From a virus (taxonomy: Duplodnaviria > Heunggongvirae > Uroviricota > Caudoviricetes), in the IMG/VR virus record IMGVR_UViG_648276652_000022: 10,631 nucleotides of DNA; one strand, 5' to 3'. The position numbers and the translations under genes were made by a program. The notes beneath the pieces are model-generated. The model had not been told where the DNA came from, ran no database searches, and saw nothing but the letters and a program-made list of their open reading frames with translations. Below are positions 3,155-9,138 of this stretch, in pieces; the first letter of the stretch is position 1, and the number at the start of each line of letters is the position of its first letter.

Positions 3155-3516
3155 TATGCTCCAGCCTCCGGTGCTTTTGGCATTACTGCCCAGTGAGTGA
3201 TATTGACGTTTTCAAGGTCCCCGACCTGAAATGTCCACTGCCATTCTCCGGTTTCTTTTTGTCCCCAGGTGTACCAGAGAGAACGCCAGCCAATTAGCCA
3301 GCCTTCTCCGTTAGCATCGAATAACAAAACACTTTCATTTGCTGGTGGCAGTTCAGTTGACACTGGTATTACTTTGTTTTCCTGTGCTGCACATTTAGCT
3401 TCAAGCGCATCGAATTTACGCACCAGGTATTCAGCATCTGTTTCATTTACTTTCAGATCTCGCGGTACACATCTCCCACGAAGAAACCCTTCCATTTCGA
3501 AAACATTCATGCGCAT
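3154..3516 (-). CDS. yfdS: Prophage protein, Trp-rich C-terminus (DUF551-like), 120 aa
   Basis: 120-aa ORF; size and position after yfdR match the CPS-53 yfdS gene; C-terminal GWLIGW...WYTW...W pattern. The alternative start at 3510 forms an ATGA overlap with the yfdR stop. Confidence 0.7.
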   Translation of the reverse strand: MRMNVFEMEGFLRGRCVPRDLKVNETDAEYLVRKFDALEAKCAAQENKVIPVSTELPPANESVLLFDANGEGWLIGWRSLWYTWGQKETGEWQWTFQVGDLENVNITHWAVMPKAPEAGA

Positions 3517-4043
3517 TTGCGTAACTCCGATAACTCGTTAAAGCGTTCCATAAACATCCCGTAGGCATGGCCCGGTGCCAGTGGAATCACGTTGAACATC
3601 TCTGTTGCCGGGATACCTTCCAGTACAGGCCAGAAAGAGCCATCATCAAGCCCGAGATCGCGGCGTTCGGTTGCCAGCATGATGAGATCGGCATATTTCA
3701 CGGGCGTACTCATAACTGGGGGTAACCCGTATTTCTCACGGATTACGGCGTCTATTTTTTCTTCCATTTGTTTATAGTCAGGAAGAAGGCGTTTCAGTGG
3801 TGCGGGAATGTCCTGGCAATACGCTTCTGTTGCATCATGCATTAACGCTTCAAAAGCAAATTCCTGCGGCACCAACTGGCTGCAAAGAACCGCATGTTGG
3901 GCGACGCTGTAGAAGTGCGAAAGATGACCGGCAAAGCGACAGATATTTGAAAGGGAAACCGCGATATCGTTAATATCGATGTCGTCTTTATTTATCCTGT
4001 CATAATAAAAATGCTTCCCGGAAAAAGTTTTAATAAATGACAT
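3507..4043 (-). CDS. yfdR: HD-domain phosphohydrolase (5'-deoxynucleotidase-like), 178 aa
   Basis: The listed ORF starts at a GTG (4070); the internal ATG at 4043 is preceded by GGAG 8 nt upstream and gives a 178-aa product MSFIKTFSGKHFYYD... with an H...HD metal-binding signature (LMHDATEAY). Recognised as YfdR-like. Confidence 0.85.
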   Translation of the reverse strand: MSFIKTFSGKHFYYDRINKDDIDINDIAVSLSNICRFAGHLSHFYSVAQHAVLCSQLVPQEFAFEALMHDATEAYCQDIPAPLKRLLPDYKQMEEKIDAVIREKYGLPPVMSTPVKYADLIMLATERRDLGLDDGSFWPVLEGIPATEMFNVIPLAPGHAYGMFMERFNELSELRKCA

Positions 4044-4137
4044 TTTGTTCTCCACGTATATGCGCTGCACCGCGCTGAATTCTGGTAAAAAGAATCCCTC
4101 ACCATCCGGCGATTATTGAGTAAATTACGTTTCCATA

Positions 4138-4158
4138 AATGCCCCCGCAGGGGCATTT
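4138..4158. other. Perfect 9-bp stem / 3-nt loop hairpin between yfdQ and yfdR
   Basis: AAATGCCCC-GCA-GGGGCATTT read directly; lies in the 127-bp gap after the yfdQ stop. No clear U-tract, so its role (processing site, attenuator, protein-binding site) is undetermined. Confidence 0.4.
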
Positions 4159-4170
4159 GCAGTAATGAAA

Positions 4171-4995
4171 TCAGGCGGTGAAAGTACCAATAAAGGTTTC
4201 TACTTTGCTGTCCTTGAATTTCTCAACAAGCAGATCACGAAATTCGTTAGCCATTTCTTCCTGCACCGCCTCCAGCTGAATAATGCGCAGAACCAGTACA
4301 GGACGATCGCCAGTGATAATACTGAGGCGTAATTTAAACGGACGTTCTTTCAGACCTTCAAACGGAACGCATTTAAATTCAAATGCCACTGGCATAATGT
4401 CTTTGGTCTTCGCTTCGACAGACTCCATCAGGGAGCGTTTGCCGCTGAAGTCATTATCTTCAAAATCAGCGGTCTGGTTTGCTTCAATCGTGATTTTACG
4501 GACAGCCGCAGCCGCTTTTGTTGCCTGAATAGCGTCACCATTAGCATCAAAGCCCACAAGATAGTCGGCCCAGTCTTCAATCCATTCTGCCAGTGACTTC
4601 TGGGAGTTACGCTCGCCGTTAACAGACAACAGAGCAGAGAACGGTGCTGTCTTTTTCAGTTTGAGTGTGGCGGTGTTATCTGCGTGACCTGGTTCATCAA
4701 TAGTACCCAGGTTAAGCACACTGACGGCACGCATATTATCAGCATCGATAAAGCAGCGGGTGCCTTCATCTGCAAGATCTTTAGAATAACGGGTAAAGTC
4801 ATCGATGCTGGCAGTGGAAAGCGCACCACGGAAACGGAAGCGATTTAAATTAAATTTTTCCAGATCATGAATGCGGAAATTCTCAGGCAATGCCACAGCA
4901 TCGGCACCAATCTTACTGATAATTTCATTAACACCCTGAGCAGAAATAAGGGCATGGATTTGATTAATTGCGGTTGCGTCTAAGTTCTGAGACAT
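4171..4995 (-). CDS. yfdQ: DUF2303-family prophage protein, 274 aa
   Basis: 274-aa [24 protein letters not shown]... with GAGGA 8 nt upstream of the ATG; recognised as YfdQ-like (CPS-53). Confidence 0.85.
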
Positions 4996-5060: not shown

Positions 5061-5423
5061 TTAACGACCTGCTGCGCGGAGTTTTCCGTCAGGTTCACCG
5101 GCAAGAGTCAGTAACTGTCCCTGGTCTTCCTGCAGAATAGTCAGGCGACCACCGCGATTGACATACATCGGCGTTTCGGTGGTGTCTTCTTCGGAAATTT
5201 TCCCGCGGTTAGTCGGGCGAACATATGAGAGTTTGTGTTTGATTTTCACACGGTTCTCATCAAATGGTTCGATTTCCAGGTTGAGTGAGACCTTACCTTT
5301 GGTTTTCGTGTTCATCACACCGGAAGCGACTTCACTGAGAACTGCGCCGATTTTGGTTTCAAATACGCCGCCGTCCAGCTCCCCGATAAATGCCTGCACA
5401 TCAGTACTGCGTTCGCTAGCCAT
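5061..5423 (-). CDS. yfdP: Prophage protein, 120 aa
   Basis: Listed ORF 5061..5741 is over-extended; the internal ATG at 5423 (MASERSTDVQAFIGELDGG...) is preceded by GAGGAG 7 nt upstream and gives 120 aa, matching YfdP. Confidence 0.8.
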   Translation of the reverse strand: MASERSTDVQAFIGELDGGVFETKIGAVLSEVASGVMNTKTKGKVSLNLEIEPFDENRVKIKHKLSYVRPTNRGKISEEDTTETPMYVNRGGRLTILQEDQGQLLTLAGEPDGKLRAAGR

Positions 5424-5471
5424 TTTGCTGCTCCTCATCATATCGACCCTGCAAGGCCGATTAGTTTCTCC

Positions 5472-5560
5472 ACAAAACAGAGAAGAACACCTGCGGTGGC
5501 AGCCGCCCGGATGGATTGGGTTATGAGCCCGTCGTCCGGTGATGCTCTTCTCTGTTTTGT
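5472..5560. repeat. 15-bp perfect inverted repeat (ACAAAACAGAGAAGA / TCTTCTCTGTTTTGT) flanking a 59-bp GC-rich spacer
   Basis: Arms at 5472-5486 and 5546-5560 are exact reverse complements (checked base by base). They sit in a ~470 bp region without a convincing ORF. Confidence 0.6.
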
Positions 5561-5824
5561 AAAAAGGACGGTACCAGCCGGAAGCAAGGGTACAAACTGG
5601 TACCTCCAGGACTACACACAGCATAAAGTTGTGGTGCCGGGTGCCTCCCGGTGCCTGGCGAAGGTTGCACACCAGACGGGTGGGTATCCACAGAAGGTCG
5701 ACTGTCAGCCTCAACCTTAACCCGCGTGCGCTGAGCCGCATTCACCACAACGCTAAGGATTCTCTCTGGTTAAAAATACTTAGCTGTTATGTGCCTGCTT
5801 TTAGCCACATCAGGCGAGGTGGAC

Positions 5825-5877
5825 CTGGTTATTCCCCAACAACAAGGATTCGGTTAATCTGGTTATCCCCAACAACG
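5825..5877 (+). repeat. Two ~19-bp direct repeats CTGGTTAT(T)CCCCAACAAC immediately upstream of the 144-aa ORF
   Basis: Copies at 5825-5844 and 5859-5877 differ by one T; further CTGGTTA / CGGTTAA copies at 5766-5772 and 5851-5857. Candidate regulator-binding sites or promoter elements. Confidence 0.5.
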
Positions 5878-5891
5878 CAAAAGGAAAAGAA

Positions 5892-6326
5892 ATGTCCGGT
5901 AATATCTACACGCTGTACAAATCCCACTGTGAAAATGTTGGAAAGTATCGGGGCATTGAAATCAGTGGGGTAGTGTCATCAGTCGAAATAAGCAAAGTGG
6001 AATCAAGGGCAACATTACTTACTCTTCTGGACCTTGTCTTACATGAGCACCGGAAGAAATTCGGCACTCCCTATAATCAGTTGAATGGGAAAAAGGCTCT
6101 GGTTCACCTTATTCTGATGAAGCATCACTGGATGCCAAAACAGATTAATGAGATGAAATTTGATGAACTTCTTCTTTCAATTCAGGATGAACTCACACTT
6201 GATAAAATAAGCGTAACCGCCCAGAAATTTTTAGATTATCGAGACTGGAGATCACAAATTCATCACTTTGATGATTTTGACGAAAATGAATGGGATCCTA
6301 ATTTGTCTGCACAATATCTAAAGTAA
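5892..6326 (+). CDS. Hypothetical protein, 144 aa, AT-rich moron-like gene on the opposite strand to the surrounding early-left genes
   Basis: ATG at 5892 with AAGGA 6 nt upstream; open for 144 codons; visibly lower GC than flanking genes (by eye roughly 40% versus about 50%); acidic C-terminus (HHFDDFDENEWDPN). No family recognised. Confidence 0.7.
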   Translation: MSGNIYTLYKSHCENVGKYRGIEISGVVSSVEISKVESRATLLTLLDLVLHEHRKKFGTPYNQLNGKKALVHLILMKHHWMPKQINEMKFDELLLSIQDELTLDKISVTAQKFLDYRDWRSQIHHFDDFDENEWDPNLSAQYLK

Positions 6327-6504
6327 CATCCTGTGATAAAACCGTGATTTCCTGATCCAGTTTTTTTAAGGAGTCTATTGTTTCCTGTCGATAAGACAGC
6401 ACTTCACGAAGCTGGTTTATAGCTGCCAGCTTCTTTGCCATCCACTCGTAAATTTCCTCATTTGTGTATCCGGGCGCGACGATTTTGGGTTCTGTTTTGT
6501 GCAT
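6298..6504 (-). CDS. Hypothetical small protein, 68 aa, first gene downstream of pL
   Basis: The listed 73-aa ORF starts at TTG (6519), but TTGAGGAGG is better read as the Shine-Dalgarno GAGGAGG, 6 nt upstream of the ATG at 6504 (MHKTEPKIVAPGYTNEEIYEWMAKKLAAINQLREV...). Heptad-like, probably helical. Its 3' end overlaps the 144-aa ORF convergently by 29 bp. Confidence 0.65.
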   Translation of the reverse strand: MHKTEPKIVAPGYTNEEIYEWMAKKLAAINQLREVLSYRQETIDSLKKLDQEITVLSQDVTLDIVQTN

Positions 6505-6549
6505 TTCACACCTCCTCAAGTTATCAGTTACTTGTTGATGGGGACCAGA

Positions 6550-6561
6550 TTGTTAAAGAGC
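6550..6561 (-). promoter_or_regulatory. boxA-like antitermination element (GCTCTTTAACAA) in the pL leader
   Basis: Minus-strand reading of 6561..6550 is GCTCTTTAACAA, matching the E. coli rrn boxA consensus TGCTCTTTAACAA at 12 of 12 shared positions. A stem-loop lies 3 nt 5' of it on the same RNA, the rrn-style boxB-boxA order. Confidence 0.45.
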
Positions 6562-6562
6562 T

Positions 6563-6586
6563 AAGCGTCCTGTAGGGCGCTTTTTT
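6563..6586 (+). terminator. Rho-independent terminator on the + strand (GCGTCC-TGTA-GGGCGC followed by TTTTTT)
   Basis: 6-bp stem (one G-U pair) at 6565-6570 / 6575-6580, then a T-run at 6581-6586. The same hairpin on the minus-strand RNA is the structure upstream of the boxA-like element. Confidence 0.55.
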
Positions 6587-6671
6587 GTTGCTAACGAATC
6601 ACCCTAGACTTTATATGCCCCAGGCGGCTACTTCGTGGGCGTCCTGCCTGTTCGTTGTTTCTCTTGGGTAC

Positions 6672-6699
6672 ATTATGTATCTCATGGGTACATTGTCAA
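6672..6699 (-). promoter_or_regulatory. Leftward early promoter pL (TTGACA-16 bp-CATAAT) with embedded operator TGTACCCATGAGATACA
   Basis: On the minus strand: consensus -35 TTGACA (plus 6694-6699), 16-bp spacer, -10 CATAAT (plus 6672-6677). The 17-mer at 6676-6692 fits the T-GTAY-N7-GTAC-A dyad pattern also found at OR. Confidence 0.55.
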
Positions 6700-6700
6700 G

Positions 6701-6726
6701 TATAAAAAAACCTGCCGAAGCAGGTT
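6701..6726 (-). terminator. Rho-independent terminator downstream of the repressor gene (UUCG-loop hairpin followed by U-run)
   Basis: Minus-strand RNA: AACCUGC-UUCG-GCAGGUU followed by a run of U (plus-strand A-run 6704-6710), beginning 12 nt after the cI stop. Confidence 0.55.
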
Positions 6727-6738
6727 CATAAACATTGA

Positions 6739-7413
6739 TTAGGCTTTGATTTTGTATCTTCTTGGTTTTCCTGAGAAAATCACAGTTCCAATTATAGAGC
6801 AATTACCGTTGATCTTAATGTAAGGCTCAGGCCAGTTTGGGTTTAACGCTTTGAGATAACGCTGTGTCCCATCTTCTATCAACCTTTTGAAGGTGGTTTC
6901 ACCTGTATCGTGCATCAATGCAATAACGTCGTCACCGTGGCAGGCTGGTACTTCAGGATCGACAAAAATCATGTCTCCCGGGCGGTACTCATCAATCATT
7001 GAATCACCTATCACCCGCAAGATATAAGTCATTTCCCCACAGGGTACAGGGCAGGGATACGTTTCTGCTGTGCTCAAATCAACCTCAGAATATCCAACTT
7101 CTTTCCATGCTCCGGCCTGTACCCATGATATGACAGGGACTAATGTGATTTGTTTATTAGTGATTGAAACATCAGGTTTTTTTGTGATGTTCGTTGTCTG
7201 GTGTTCTTGATCGAGCCATCCAACAGGCAGGTCGAAACATTTTTCGATGTGTCGTGCCATGCTGTCACCGATATTTTTAGTAGCACCATCTCCCATAAAC
7301 CTGCTGGTCTGGGTTGGCTCGCGATCAATCATAGTGGCAAAGGAAGAATTCCCGCCAACACCATCTCTCAGTTTTCTGGCGTTAGACCGCCGGATGTCAT
7401 GGATTGTTTTCAT
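6739..7413 (-). CDS. CI-like prophage repressor (N-terminal HTH plus C-terminal S24 LexA-type peptidase domain), 224 aa
   Basis: 224-aa ORF with a GDSM serine motif and downstream KRL lysine typical of S24 autopeptidases; divergent from a Cro-like gene across an operator-bearing intergenic region. Appears leaderless (the -10-like TTTAAT lies directly upstream of the ATG). Confidence 0.88.
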   Translation of the reverse strand: MKTIHDIRRSNARKLRDGVGGNSSFATMIDREPTQTSRFMGDGATKNIGDSMARHIEKCFDLPVGWLDQEHQTTNITKKPDVSITNKQITLVPVISWVQAGAWKEVGYSEVDLSTAETYPCPVPCGEMTYILRVIGDSMIDEYRPGDMIFVDPEVPACHGDDVIALMHDTGETTFKRLIEDGTQRYLKALNPNWPEPYIKINGNCSIIGTVIFSGKPRRYKIKA

Positions 7414-7453: not shown

Positions 7454-7497
7454 TTGAAGGTTCATTTTAATCATGTAATATGTACACCGGAGGTACA
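7454..7497 (+). promoter_or_regulatory. Rightward early promoter PR (TTGAAG-16 bp-TAATAT) with operator OR-b TGTACACCGGAGGTACA at 7481-7497
   Basis: -35 at 7454-7459, -10 at 7476-7481; the 17-bp dyad, with the same GTAC spacing as OR-a, overlaps the -10 and start region. Confidence 0.55.
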
Positions 7498-7503
7498 TAT
7501 TGT

Positions 7504-7704
7504 ATGAAAGCGTATTGGGACTCTTTAACCAAAGAACAGCAGGGCGAGTTGGCCGGAAAAGTTGGCTCAACACCTGGCTACTTACGGCTGGTTTTCAATG
7601 GCTATAAAAAAGCCAGTTTTGTGCTGGCTAAAAAACTTGAGCAATGCACGTCAGGTGCAATTACGAAATCTGACTTAAGACCGGATATCTATCCGAAAGA
7701 TTAG
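7504..7704 (+). CDS. Cro-like / YdaS-family HTH regulator, 66 aa
   Basis: Listed ORF starts at 7480, but GGAGG at 7488-7492 precedes the ATG at 7504 (MKAYWDSLTKEQQGELAGKVGSTPGYLRLV...). Small HTH-like protein divergent from cI, with a C-terminal LRPDI motif as in YdaS-type proteins. Confidence 0.7.
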   Translation: MKAYWDSLTKEQQGELAGKVGSTPGYLRLVFNGYKKASFVLAKKLEQCTSGAITKSDLRPDIYPKD

Positions 7705-7735: not shown

Positions 7736-8305
7736 ATGAGGCTAACCGTGGGTAAGCATCACTGGAAAGTAGAAAAACAGCCTGAGTGGTACGTGAAAGC
7801 TGTCAGAAAAACTATCGCAAAGTTGCCGGGTGGTTACGCTGAAGCAGCTGACTGGCTGGATGTAACAGAGAACGCATTATTTAACCGCCTTCGTGCCGAT
7901 GGCGATCAGATTTTCCCGCTGGGATGGGCAATGATTTTGCAACGTGCTGGTGGAACTCACTTCATTGCTGACGCTGTGGCGCAGTCTGCAAATGGCGTCT
8001 TTGTGTCTCTTCCTGACGTCGAGGATGTGGACAACGCCGATATTAACCAGCGTCTGCTGGAAGTCATTGAACAGATCGGCAGTTATTCAAAACAGATTCG
8101 TTCAGCAATCGAAGACGGTGTAGTGGAACCGCATGAGAAGACAGCAATTAACGACGAGCTGTATCTCTCAATTTCGAAGCTGCAGGAGCATGCAGCACTG
8201 GTCTACAAAATCTTTTGCATTTCAGAAAGTAATGACGCCCGCGAGTGTGCAGCTCCGGGCGTCGTGGCGTCGATTGCTTCTGGTTGTGGAGAAACTAACG
8301 CATGA
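7736..8305 (+). CDS. Prophage regulatory protein, CII-like (CP76/YdaT-like family), 189 aa
   Basis: 189-aa ORF directly after the Cro-like gene. Family assignment is from recognition only. No Shine-Dalgarno before the ATG at 7736; the GTG at 7748 with GAGG 6 nt upstream is an alternative start. Confidence 0.55.
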   Translation: MRLTVGKHHWKVEKQPEWYVKAVRKTIAKLPGGYAEAADWLDVTENALFNRLRADGDQIFPLGWAMILQRAGGTHFIADAVAQSANGVFVSLPDVEDVDNADINQRLLEVIEQIGSYSKQIRSAIEDGVVEPHEKTAINDELYLSISKLQEHAALVYKIFCISESNDARECAAPGVVASIASGCGETNA

Positions 8306-9138
8306 ACAGTTTAACGGCAAATAACCGTTTGTCGCAACAGCTGGTGGTCAGCGTCGCTGAACACGTGTTGTTACGGCATGAATGCAGATTACCAAATCTC
8401 CTGGCTGTAAGTAACCACAGAGAACTTTACCTGACTGTGGGGGGCGAGTTGTGCAGGAACTTAACCGCTGGTTTCGTGACGGAAGAGGACTTTATGTTCA
8501 TGTTATTCGTTGGGAGCCAGAAACACAGCGCGTTATCTATCTTCGCAAAGACTACCCGCATGAGTGCTTTAGCCCTTTGTGGAAATTCAGGCGTGATTTT
8601 GTTGAGTGTGAAGGACCACCAGCACATTGATTCTGCCATTCCGGGACGTTACACTGTTCAGGCACCTTATAAAGCGGGTGCCGGGATTGGCGTCCTGGAA
8701 TTGATCAAGGCGATATATGACGCGCCAGCGTCTTTTTTATCGTCCGCATTTGCTCACATCAAAGTTATGGTGGGCTGGGCGGGGGCATCGAAAGATGCGC
8801 CGGTTTCCTTGATCACCGGTTACGCCAACCCCGTTCAGTTCACCACCAGCGAAATTGGCGTTTCCGGTGGTGGAAGTATTTCACCGATCAAGGAGGCTGC
8901 CATCATGGCTACTGTCCCAGCCCTCACTCGTCTGAATGATGAAGACTTACATAAACTCAGTTATGTAACAACTGCACTACGTGCTCTGCGCAAGGTAACT
9001 CTTTCGGATCCGCAGGCACATCAGGTTCTGGTAGAAACCCTTCTTAACTTGCAAGCTGAACGTATTCGTCTGGCGGATAAGGCTAATTTTCATATTCACC
9101 GTCTCCTGAATATCAGCGGAGGGCATCGTCATGCTTAA
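8302..9138 (+). CDS. Hypothetical protein (278-aa frame); the 5' part may be over-called, the 3' part (about 8631-9138) looks like genuine coding
   Basis: Continuous 278-codon frame with an ATGA overlap to the upstream gene. From about 8631 the codons look like typical E. coli coding sequence (GCG, GGC, GAA, ATC, AAA). An internal ATG at 8905 is preceded by AAGGAGG 8 nt upstream. Conflicts with a well-formed small ORF in another frame (8451-8630). Confidence 0.35.
   Translation: MNSLTANNRLSQQLVVSVAEHVLLRHECRLPNLLAVSNHRELYLTVGGELCRNLTAGFVTEEDFMFMLFVGSQKHSALSIFAKTTRMSALALCGNSGVILLSVKDHQHIDSAIPGRYTVQAPYKAGAGIGVLELIKAIYDAPASFLSSAFAHIKVMVGWAGASKDAPVSLITGYANPVQFTTSEIGVSGGGSISPIKEAAIMATVPALTRLNDEDLHKLSYVTTALRALRKVTLSDPQAHQVLVETLLNLQAERIRLADKANFHIHRLLNISGGHRHA
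8451..8630 (+). CDS. Small phage protein, DUF4222-like pattern, 59 aa, GTG start, in a different frame from the 278-aa ORF
   Basis: Hand translation: VQELNRWFRDGRGLYVHVIRWEPETQRVIYLRKDYPHECFSPLWKFRRDFVECEGPPAH, stop TGA at 8628-8630. It fits the small phage-protein pattern D.RG..V.V......RV.Y.R..Y..EC..P...F...F as I recall it. Absent from the ORF track (under 60 aa, GTG start). Confidence 0.4.
   Translation: MQELNRWFRDGRGLYVHVIRWEPETQRVIYLRKDYPHECFSPLWKFRRDFVECEGPPAH

Follow-up and report, generated by a model that had tools for sequence, protein, structure and literature searches.

An ECs1072-family gene and its small convergent neighbour: a candidate two-gene moron module on an exchangeable prophage cassette

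Several described systems come close to the gene examined here, ORF144, a 144-amino-acid (aa) open reading frame (ORF) on the plus strand of a 10,631-nt stretch of viral DNA (IMG/VR record IMGVR_UViG_648276652_000022, the whole of which we call the window). Lambdoid phages carry morons and exclusion genes such as lambda rexAB and sieB, HK97 gp15 and P22 sieA/sieB; rexAB shares its transcript with cI and has the same orientation as pL. The defence hotspots of P2 and P4, reportedly described by Rousset et al. in 2022, are variable hotspots of prophages. NCBIfam NF033230, the "ECs1072 family phage-associated protein", is a named but uncharacterised family and a hypothetical equivalog; ORF144 is a full member. 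Finally, the Tha/Ith system of Staphylococcus aureus phages joins a lysogen-expressed defence gene to a small overlapping antisense inhibitor, the pair being coupled to the phage life cycle by orientation (Rostol et al. 2024, PMC11087260). We lean, with modest confidence, towards the view that ORF144 is an accessory moron that would be expressed in the lysogen and that forms, on a cassette, a conserved two-gene module with the 68-aa gene facing it; this view does not require an anti-phage role. The features on which the comparison turns are the following.

5892-6326, plus strand: ECs1072-family gene, 144 aa, with an ATG start (ORF call and hidden Markov model); SfIV gp36, WP_000016389.1
5881-5885, plus strand: Shine-Dalgarno sequence AAGGA, 6 nt ahead of the ATG
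6298-6504, minus strand: 68-aa YdfC-like gene (RefSeq; PHROG 1744), the first gene of the pL transcript
6656-6699, minus strand: pL-like promoter (TTGACA 6699-6694, 16-nt spacer, CATAAT 6677-6672) with operator-like repeats
6708-6727, minus strand: cI terminator (terminator scan)

Like the lambdoid morons and exclusion genes, ORF144 is accessory, deviates in composition, has its own terminator, lies beside the immunity region and is likely expressed from the prophage, and it has several of the features of a moron in the Hendrix/Juhala sense: presence or absence at the same position, its own predicted terminator and a deviant base composition. It has no sequence or fold relation to rexAB, sieB, HK97 gp15 or P22 sieA/sieB. 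Unlike rexAB, it runs against the transcription of cI as well as that of pL, and cI ends in a terminator of its own, so that no rex-like gene is co-transcribed with cI. The noncontiguous operon of Tha/Ith has the same layout as ORF144 and the 68-aa gene, which overlap by 29 nt at their 3' ends; however, the proteins are unrelated, ORF144 contains no HEPN or other domain, and the gene antisense to the operon is the large one here and the small one there. As in the P2/P4 hotspots, a fixed slot with conserved flanks holds exchangeable cargo, but here the cassettes also share a leader, a cargo-bracketing inverted repeat and a terminator, and no cargo matches a known defence system. Within the ECs1072 family, STMMW_20121 of the Salmonella prophage ST64B has the same size, antisense placement and overlapping small partner, but it is 29% identical to ORF144 and occupies the Q-holin slot rather than the one at pL. 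New in this analysis are the two-gene module, a placement rule that holds in different kinds of phage, the connection with published transcriptomes of lysogens, and a leader, inverted repeat and terminator that together form a reusable chassis.

ORF144, its family and its convergent partner

Conservation marks ORF144 as a genuine protein-coding gene under selection, and it is very probably a real accessory gene that the phage can do without. The translation scored 157.8 bits against NF033230 (cutoff 70; profile positions 2-142 of 142) and matched PHROG 5286, of unknown function, with E=1.5e-90 over positions 1-144 of 144. The ratio of non-synonymous to synonymous substitution rates (dN/dS) was 0.20 in comparison with the 72%-identical Escherichia albertii orthologue. 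The original prediction, a reading of the letters and ORFs of the window, was thus right to call a real gene at 5892-6326 with a Shine-Dalgarno sequence of its own, and right that the gene is AT-richer than its neighbours (GC 0.386, against 0.470 for the prophage part and 0.525 for the left flank); its remark that no family could be recognised was mistaken, albeit the family is uncharacterised. An exhaustive profile search retrieved 76 representatives at 50% clustering, nearly all of 143-157 aa and single-domain, in which R54, L64, G66, A69, H72 and W134 are near-invariant, the last within an E-W-D-P motif. The gene itself was present in 422 of 5426 complete E. coli genomes, at least 95% identical in 421 of them, whereas its flanks were matched in 1877. 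ORF144 is identical to SfIV gp36, and a viral scan with close alignment yielded solely 100%-identical copies.

An AlphaFold2 model built from a 56-sequence alignment has eight helices and is all-alpha, with a predicted local distance difference test score (pLDDT) of 92.8 and a predicted template modelling score (pTM) of 0.86. The predicted protein (isoelectric point 6.4, grand average of hydropathy (GRAVY) -0.47, no signal peptide or transmembrane (TM) segment) is cytoplasmic in character. Pfam gave no match for ORF144 and none common to the 56 family members. Profile search and structure prediction, which had been proposed as checks, therefore delivered a hypothetical family and a confident all-helical model but no function, which is not readable from the sequence or the fold of ORF144.

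The 68-aa gene converges on ORF144. The original prediction had correctly placed it with pL, of which it is the first gene, but had missed its role as a conserved convergent partner. Its product shares the pattern M-x-K-x-EP...T-x-E-E-L-x-E-W-M with YdfC, encoded in the dicBF operon of Qin, at 38-39% identity to the ydfC product of Qin-like phages and in the same early-left operon position; Qin-type phages differ in having no ECs1072 gene alongside. We compared the placement of ECs1072-family genes in 16 contexts (loci are given L numbers below). In all 16, the gene was oriented opposite to the surrounding lytic operon and lay just downstream of that operon's promoter, which was pL, pR' or the P2 early promoter. 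The slots were occupied as follows.

cI/pL to early-left slot: the window, E. albertii L009, L008, Pectobacterium L093, Lonsdalea L094, L098 and L222
cI/pL slot with the ECs1072 gene between pL and N: Symbiopectobacterium L220 and L223
Q-holin slot: Salmonella ST64B, Klebsiella KPP5665-2 and Serratia L012
Early operon of P2-like prophages: Pantoea

A small ORF, read in the sense of the lytic promoter, converged on the 3' end of the ECs1072 gene, mostly overlapping it, in 15 of these contexts. It belonged to the YdfC family in 11 (motif EP...T.EE/QL.E/DW) and to another coiled-coil family in the Pectobacterium/Lonsdalea/Symbiopectobacterium clade. Moreover, the four ECs1072 alleles found on the E. 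coli chassis each have their own diverged partner allele. That the partner stays linked in three slots speaks for a two-gene module, while solitary cases indicate that the partnership is not obligatory; on balance, we consider it rather probable that ORF144 and the 68-aa gene are a functional pair.

Three observations on other members of the family may be recorded here. Unannotated ECs1072-family ORFs were found in ST64B (L099:2845-3279) and in Klebsiella phage KPP5665-2 (L100:2818-3291). The overlaps of the ST64B, Klebsiella and Serratia pairs (L099:3209-3279, L100, L012) contain a palindrome, TGGGATCCCA, that is read as W-D-P in each of the two convergent proteins (...DWDPRE... and ...WDPSP...), an unusual double-coding constraint. 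Symbiopectobacterium L220 has two plus-strand genes of 173 aa near cI (2170-2691 and 3501-4022), about 800 nt apart, separated by minus-strand genes and beside an insertion sequence (IS) element; one is of the ECs1072 family and the other may be a duplicate.

The variable slot and the cassette chassis

ORF144 lies on what its sequence marks as a self-contained plus-strand cassette (5823-6593) of duplicated leader, Shine-Dalgarno sequence, gene, inverted repeat and intrinsic terminator. It occupies the interval that separates pL from the early-left genes yfdP-yfdT.

5790-5822, plus strand: left-junction element TGTGCCTG...CCACATCAGGCGAGGTGG, ending in relatives in TGGTATCTT (extended -10-like) and here in ACCTGG
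5825-5876, plus strand: duplicated leader, the left end of the chassis, with direct repeats DR1 (5825-5843) and DR2 (5859-5876)
5856-5876, plus strand: left arm of the inverted repeat, AATCTGGTTATCCCCAACAAC, pairing with 6532-6551 (duplex -23.6 kcal/mol)
6532-6551, plus strand: right arm of the inverted repeat, TTGTTGATGGGGACCAGATT, pairing with the left arm
6552-6590, plus strand: GTTAAAGAGC spacer and intrinsic terminator (stem 6563-6582, then a T-run; terminator scan), the right end of the cassette

The slot varies in content among phages that have the same two flanks. SfV carries orf33 (minus) and an unannotated 81-aa plus-strand ORF, SfII carries orf36 (plus), mEp460 a 122-aa minus-strand gene and PhiR29 a plus-strand gene of about 171 aa. 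The leader is formed by the direct repeat CTGGTTAT(T)CCCCAACAAC, with a relic AAGGA following DR1, and single-copy homologous leaders occur in L093, L094, L098, L223 and SfII. A 29-mer spanning DR1 and DR2 was found in at least 120 IMG/VR contigs, also ahead of unrelated cargo genes; some 10-20 nt short of the start codon, the sequence gives way to whichever cargo the cassette carries. At least four unrelated plus-strand cargo types, none of them characterised, are carried on this chassis (loci L103-L219); their numbers among the 120 contigs listed are given below.

ECs1072 family, three alleles: 73 contigs
Coiled-coil/Zn-ribbon protein with a C-terminal CxxC...CxxC (PhiR29 type): 38 contigs
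Peptide of 25-32 aa (DYEERHMPP) and a 2-TM protein: 8 contigs
LprI-like secreted protein: 1 contig

This variation, in the slot and on the chassis, bears out the proposal that the gene is a moron. The repeat-rich upstream region that had been noted is also real, and it belongs to the shared chassis rather than to the gene.

The right end of every cassette consists of an inverted copy of the left arm, GTTAAAGAGC and the terminator, whose stem is preserved across cassettes with other cargo through loop changes and compensatory stem changes. The outer part of the inverted repeat (AATCTGG/CCAGATT) is constant, and the inner part is cargo-specific and complementary: AATCTGGATGACT/AGTCATCCAGATT in L119, AATCTGGATATCC/GGATATCCAGATT in PhiR29 and AATCTGGT[TAT]CCCCA/TGGGGACCAGATT in the window. 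Duplex energies range from -17.6 to -32.7 kcal/mol across variants, and the helix is more stable as minus-strand RNA, that is, on the lytic transcript, in 15 of 19 variants. Cognate and non-cognate arms differ little (-23.6 vs -21.8 kcal/mol) since the arms are largely constant, and the covariation of the arms therefore rests on the single cases L119, L123, L190 and PhiR29. Given that leader, bracketing inverted repeat and terminator are all shared, the arrangement is an expression chassis rather than a mere site. The strong predicted terminator, which is sequence-based (stem-loop and T-run), is on the plus strand as the original prediction had it, but it is not adjacent to ORF144: 237 nt separate it from the stop codon, with the antisense 68-aa gene in between, so that a plus-strand transcript would traverse that whole gene antisense and end just before pL.

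The alternative cargos (PhiR29 type, peptide and 2-TM protein, LprI-like protein, the SfV 81-aa ORF and SfII orf36) returned nothing informative in PADLOC, NCBIfam or Pfam. The slot is a cargo platform and not a recognised defence island. We also considered an invertible segment of the Gin/Cin/Pin type and rejected it: none of the 73 listed ECs1072 cassettes was flipped relative to the left flank, and the window contains no invertase gene.

The left edge of the variable slot is marked by the junction element, of the form GCCTG-N13-16-CCAC(C/A)TCAGGCG..GTGG, which recurs in L012:4927-4958, L093/L094:4929-4962, L098:4930-4963 and L101:2447-2477 (minus). In four other genera it precedes ECs1072 homologues, and it occurs as well in SfV, SfII, mEp460 and PPompW phages, all lacking an ECs1072 gene. 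It contains two interleaved inverted repeats, which might serve as a promoter/operator region or form, on the lytic transcript, a pseudoknot-like RNA. Directly after the element in SfV (L005), the 81-aa ORF at 3162-3407 (plus) has a Shine-Dalgarno sequence; the record annotates a minus-strand terminator there.

Expression in the lysogen and possible roles

The position of pL on the minus strand means that transcription from it crosses ORF144 antisense, as had been foreseen. Evidence on expression comes from the homologue in ST64B. STMMW_20121 (S. Typhimurium D23580, 2090066-2090500, 435 bp) comes after the holin gene and shares 71 nt with STMMW_20131 (sb50) (PMC7067206); the pair matches L099:2845-3279 and 3209-3568 in length and in the 71-nt overlap. 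Owen et al. (PMC7067206) reported that STMMW_20121 has its own promoter and start site, is antisense to lytic genes and is transcribed in almost all conditions, at 60-270 transcripts per million (TPM) in 16 of 17 conditions, compared with 0.3-33 for the holin gene and 22-258 for the partner sb50. ECs1072 itself is detectable by microarray and is in the list of growth-phase-regulated Sakai genes (PMC2241611). From these relatives, we regard expression of ORF144 in lysogens as likely, which would place it among the few prophage genes expressed in dormancy. Expression of the gene from its own promoter, as originally proposed, is accordingly documented for the ST64B homologue, but no consensus promoter was found ahead of this copy. 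Relatives have a GCCTG...CCACCTCAGGCGGCAGTGGTATCTT element, readable as TTCACC-17-TATCTT with TGn, and ST64B and Klebsiella have TGATATTGT and TGATAAAAT upstream.

Under the module reading, cI would shut pL in the lysogen and ORF144 would be transcribed alone, yielding a small, soluble, all-helical protein that might act on the host or on incoming phages. At induction, strong pL transcription running head-on through ORF144 would lower its expression and raise that of the 68-aa partner, which would counteract the ORF144 protein and so spare the phage's own development. The likeliest role would then be interference with rival phages (exclusion or abortive infection) with built-in self-immunity, in a layout like that of Tha/Ith. 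Lysogen expression, a reciprocal control exerted by transcription from pL, the partner's antagonism and a role in conflict between phages are all inferred; an anti-phage function of ORF144, taken by itself, is possible but doubtful. More tentative still, and on the unlikely side, is a bolder combined proposal. According to it, the ECs1072 protein and its YdfC-like partner would be a two-component immunity system of prophages that has so far escaped recognition and that has a novel all-helical fold, in which an effector made by the lysogen blocks superinfecting phages, and the partner, driven from pL, pR' or the P2 early promoter, stops the effector at induction through protein antagonism and head-on transcription. 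The chassis, in the same proposal, would be a dedicated plug-in platform whose long-range RNA helix lets antisense cargo enter an N-less early operon while downstream expression is kept.

Several results weigh against the module reading. Scans for sigma-70 and extended -10 promoters, with consensus and relaxed settings, found none upstream of ORF144 on the plus strand at 5300-5895, and the extended -10-like TGGTATCTT of relatives is replaced in the lineage of the window, with ACCTGG in place of TATCTT. The evidence on expression stems from a homologue of 29% identity in a different slot (Q-holin). In ST64B lysogens sb50 is as highly expressed as the ECs1072 homologue (PMC7067206), and therefore a switch from effector in lysogeny to antidote in lysis is not evident from bulk data. 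The homologue in L008 is intact and has no partner ORF, one of the 16 contexts, and YdfC-like genes also occur without ECs1072 in Qin-type phages. Neither Pfam, Rex and SieB models included, nor PADLOC returned anything for ORF144, NCBIfam gave nothing but the hypothetical ECs1072 family, the PDB contained no match by sequence, profile or fold, and a Foldseek search of the model against BFVD gave nothing at E<=0.001; across Pfam, NCBIfam, PADLOC, PDB and BFVD, the protein resembles no toxin, exclusion or defence family or fold. Nor is any chassis cargo a known defence gene, so there is no guilt by association.

Other explanations fit parts of the same evidence. That the ORF is spurious or decaying, and the region solely regulatory DNA or RNA, would suit the missing promoter consensus and the unknown function, but this is effectively refuted by conservation, given a dN/dS of 0.2, 76 representatives of constant length, a model of pLDDT 93 and intact copies at least 95% identical in 421 of 5426 E. 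coli genomes. We think it unlikely that the protein is a lysogenic-conversion factor for host physiology (stress, metabolism or colonisation) and the partner an unrelated abutting early gene. An unrelated neighbour would not be expected to follow the ECs1072 gene into three slots and to co-diverge with it, and a cytoplasmic protein (GRAVY -0.47) that lacks a signal peptide and TM segments also speaks against it. Such a factor would nonetheless agree with the constitutive expression of the ST64B homologue in lysogens across infection-relevant conditions (PMC7067206), the growth-phase dependence of ECs1072 in Sakai (PMC2241611) and the lack of a defence signature; in addition, one chassis cargo is secreted and LprI-like, which suggests host-directed functions.

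A regulator of its own prophage is what the geometry might suggest: the ECs1072 gene is always head-on to, and immediately downstream of, a lytic promoter, the 3' untranslated region of ORF144 is fully antisense to the first pL gene, and for STMMW_20121 the choices named by Owen et al. are "accessory or regulatory" (PMC7067206). The protein, or convergent transcription or antisense RNA, would in that case damp leaky pL or pR' and tune induction. Near relatives with identical cI/cro and flanks, however, lack ORF144 or hold unrelated cargo, so it is not a core regulator, while strong purifying selection and a fold kept across 20-30% identity argue that the protein matters beyond the transcript; we judge this explanation, too, to have little probability. 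A toxin-antitoxin-like addiction module that stabilises the prophage, with the ECs1072 protein as toxin and the YdfC-like protein as antitoxin, would account for two small genes that are tightly linked, mobile between contexts and both expressed in lysogens. It is distinctly improbable: the layout is convergent and not operonic, Pfam and PADLOC gave no match to a toxin-antitoxin family, and L008 keeps its gene intact without a partner.

The module reading concerns a widespread gene. About 8% of complete E. coli genomes carry exactly the ORF144 gene, and relatives occur in many Shigella, Salmonella, Klebsiella, Serratia, Pectobacterium and Pantoea prophages. Should exclusion or abortive infection with self-immunity prove to be the role, the phage-defence catalogue would gain a new protein family, Tha/Ith logic a Gram-negative counterpart, and YdfC-family proteins, one of them in E. 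coli K-12, a first function. The chassis sequence offers, besides, an easy way to find further uncharacterised cargo genes that are expressed in lysogens.

The prophage around the cassette

The window is E. coli-type chromosome, with proA at 1-1254 and the tRNA-Thr(CGU) gene thrW at 1369-1444, followed by a prophage of the SfIV/SfV type that is integrated at thrW. Many E. coli chromosomes match the DNA at 5700-6600 with 100% identity, and Shigella phage SfIV matches it with 99.9%. The remaining genes of the immunity and early-left region are arranged as follows.

1459-2622, leftward: int
After int, leftward: HTH_17 xis-like gene, DUF551 gene, YfdR-like HD phosphatase gene, DUF2303/YfdQ gene and YfdP-like gene
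6739-7413, leftward: cI (S24 peptidase)
7480-7704, rightward: cro, then a rightward CII/YmfL-like gene

ORF144 was said to be the only plus-strand gene between int and cI, and the RefSeq annotation of 100%-identical DNA agrees, the rest being on the minus strand; SfIV gp35 (plus) is an overlapping ORF without family support. The pL promoter is well supported and overlaps an operator-like ATGTAC-N7-ATACAT, and a similar ATGTAC-N7-GTACAT lies at the right operator (OR), the shared form being ATGTAC-N7-RTACAT. The paper on the SfIV genome goes no further than to list hypothetical proteins that no other phage has, and a search for papers on WP_000016389 found none. Among the literature leads, the svsR small RNA (sRNA), located at the 3' end of cI, proved irrelevant, as did LF82 prophage morons and YdfC-GFP evolution in yeast.

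Two further parts of the window drew attention. To the right of cro, Rfam matches above the gathering score were obtained for isrK (8662-8738, plus, 64 bits) and the C4 antisense RNA (8763-8850, plus, 82 bits), together with a weak c4-a1b1 target match at 8649-8701. All three lie within a 278-aa ORF (8302-9138) whose orthologue in L009 is Pfam Phage_ASH; the matches suggest that an SfV-type prophage carries a c4 RNA module like immI of P1/P7, and the ORF may be over-called in its N-terminal part. To the left of the cassette, a sub-threshold match to the STnc100 sRNA family (5559-5781, minus; 38.4 bits vs gathering 47, E=1.4e-5), with a second copy at 4000-4179 (minus, 19.8 bits), falls in a GC-rich, ORF-poor gap of about 470 nt upstream of the yfdP-like gene that is kept in SfV, SfII, mEp460 and ST64B. 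The 226-aa ORF at 5061-5741 (minus), which corresponds to the annotated SfIV gp34, has probably been drawn too long: the match to PHROG 204 is confined to residues 101-225 and YfdP is annotated as 120 aa (363 bp) in other phages, which places the true start near 5423.

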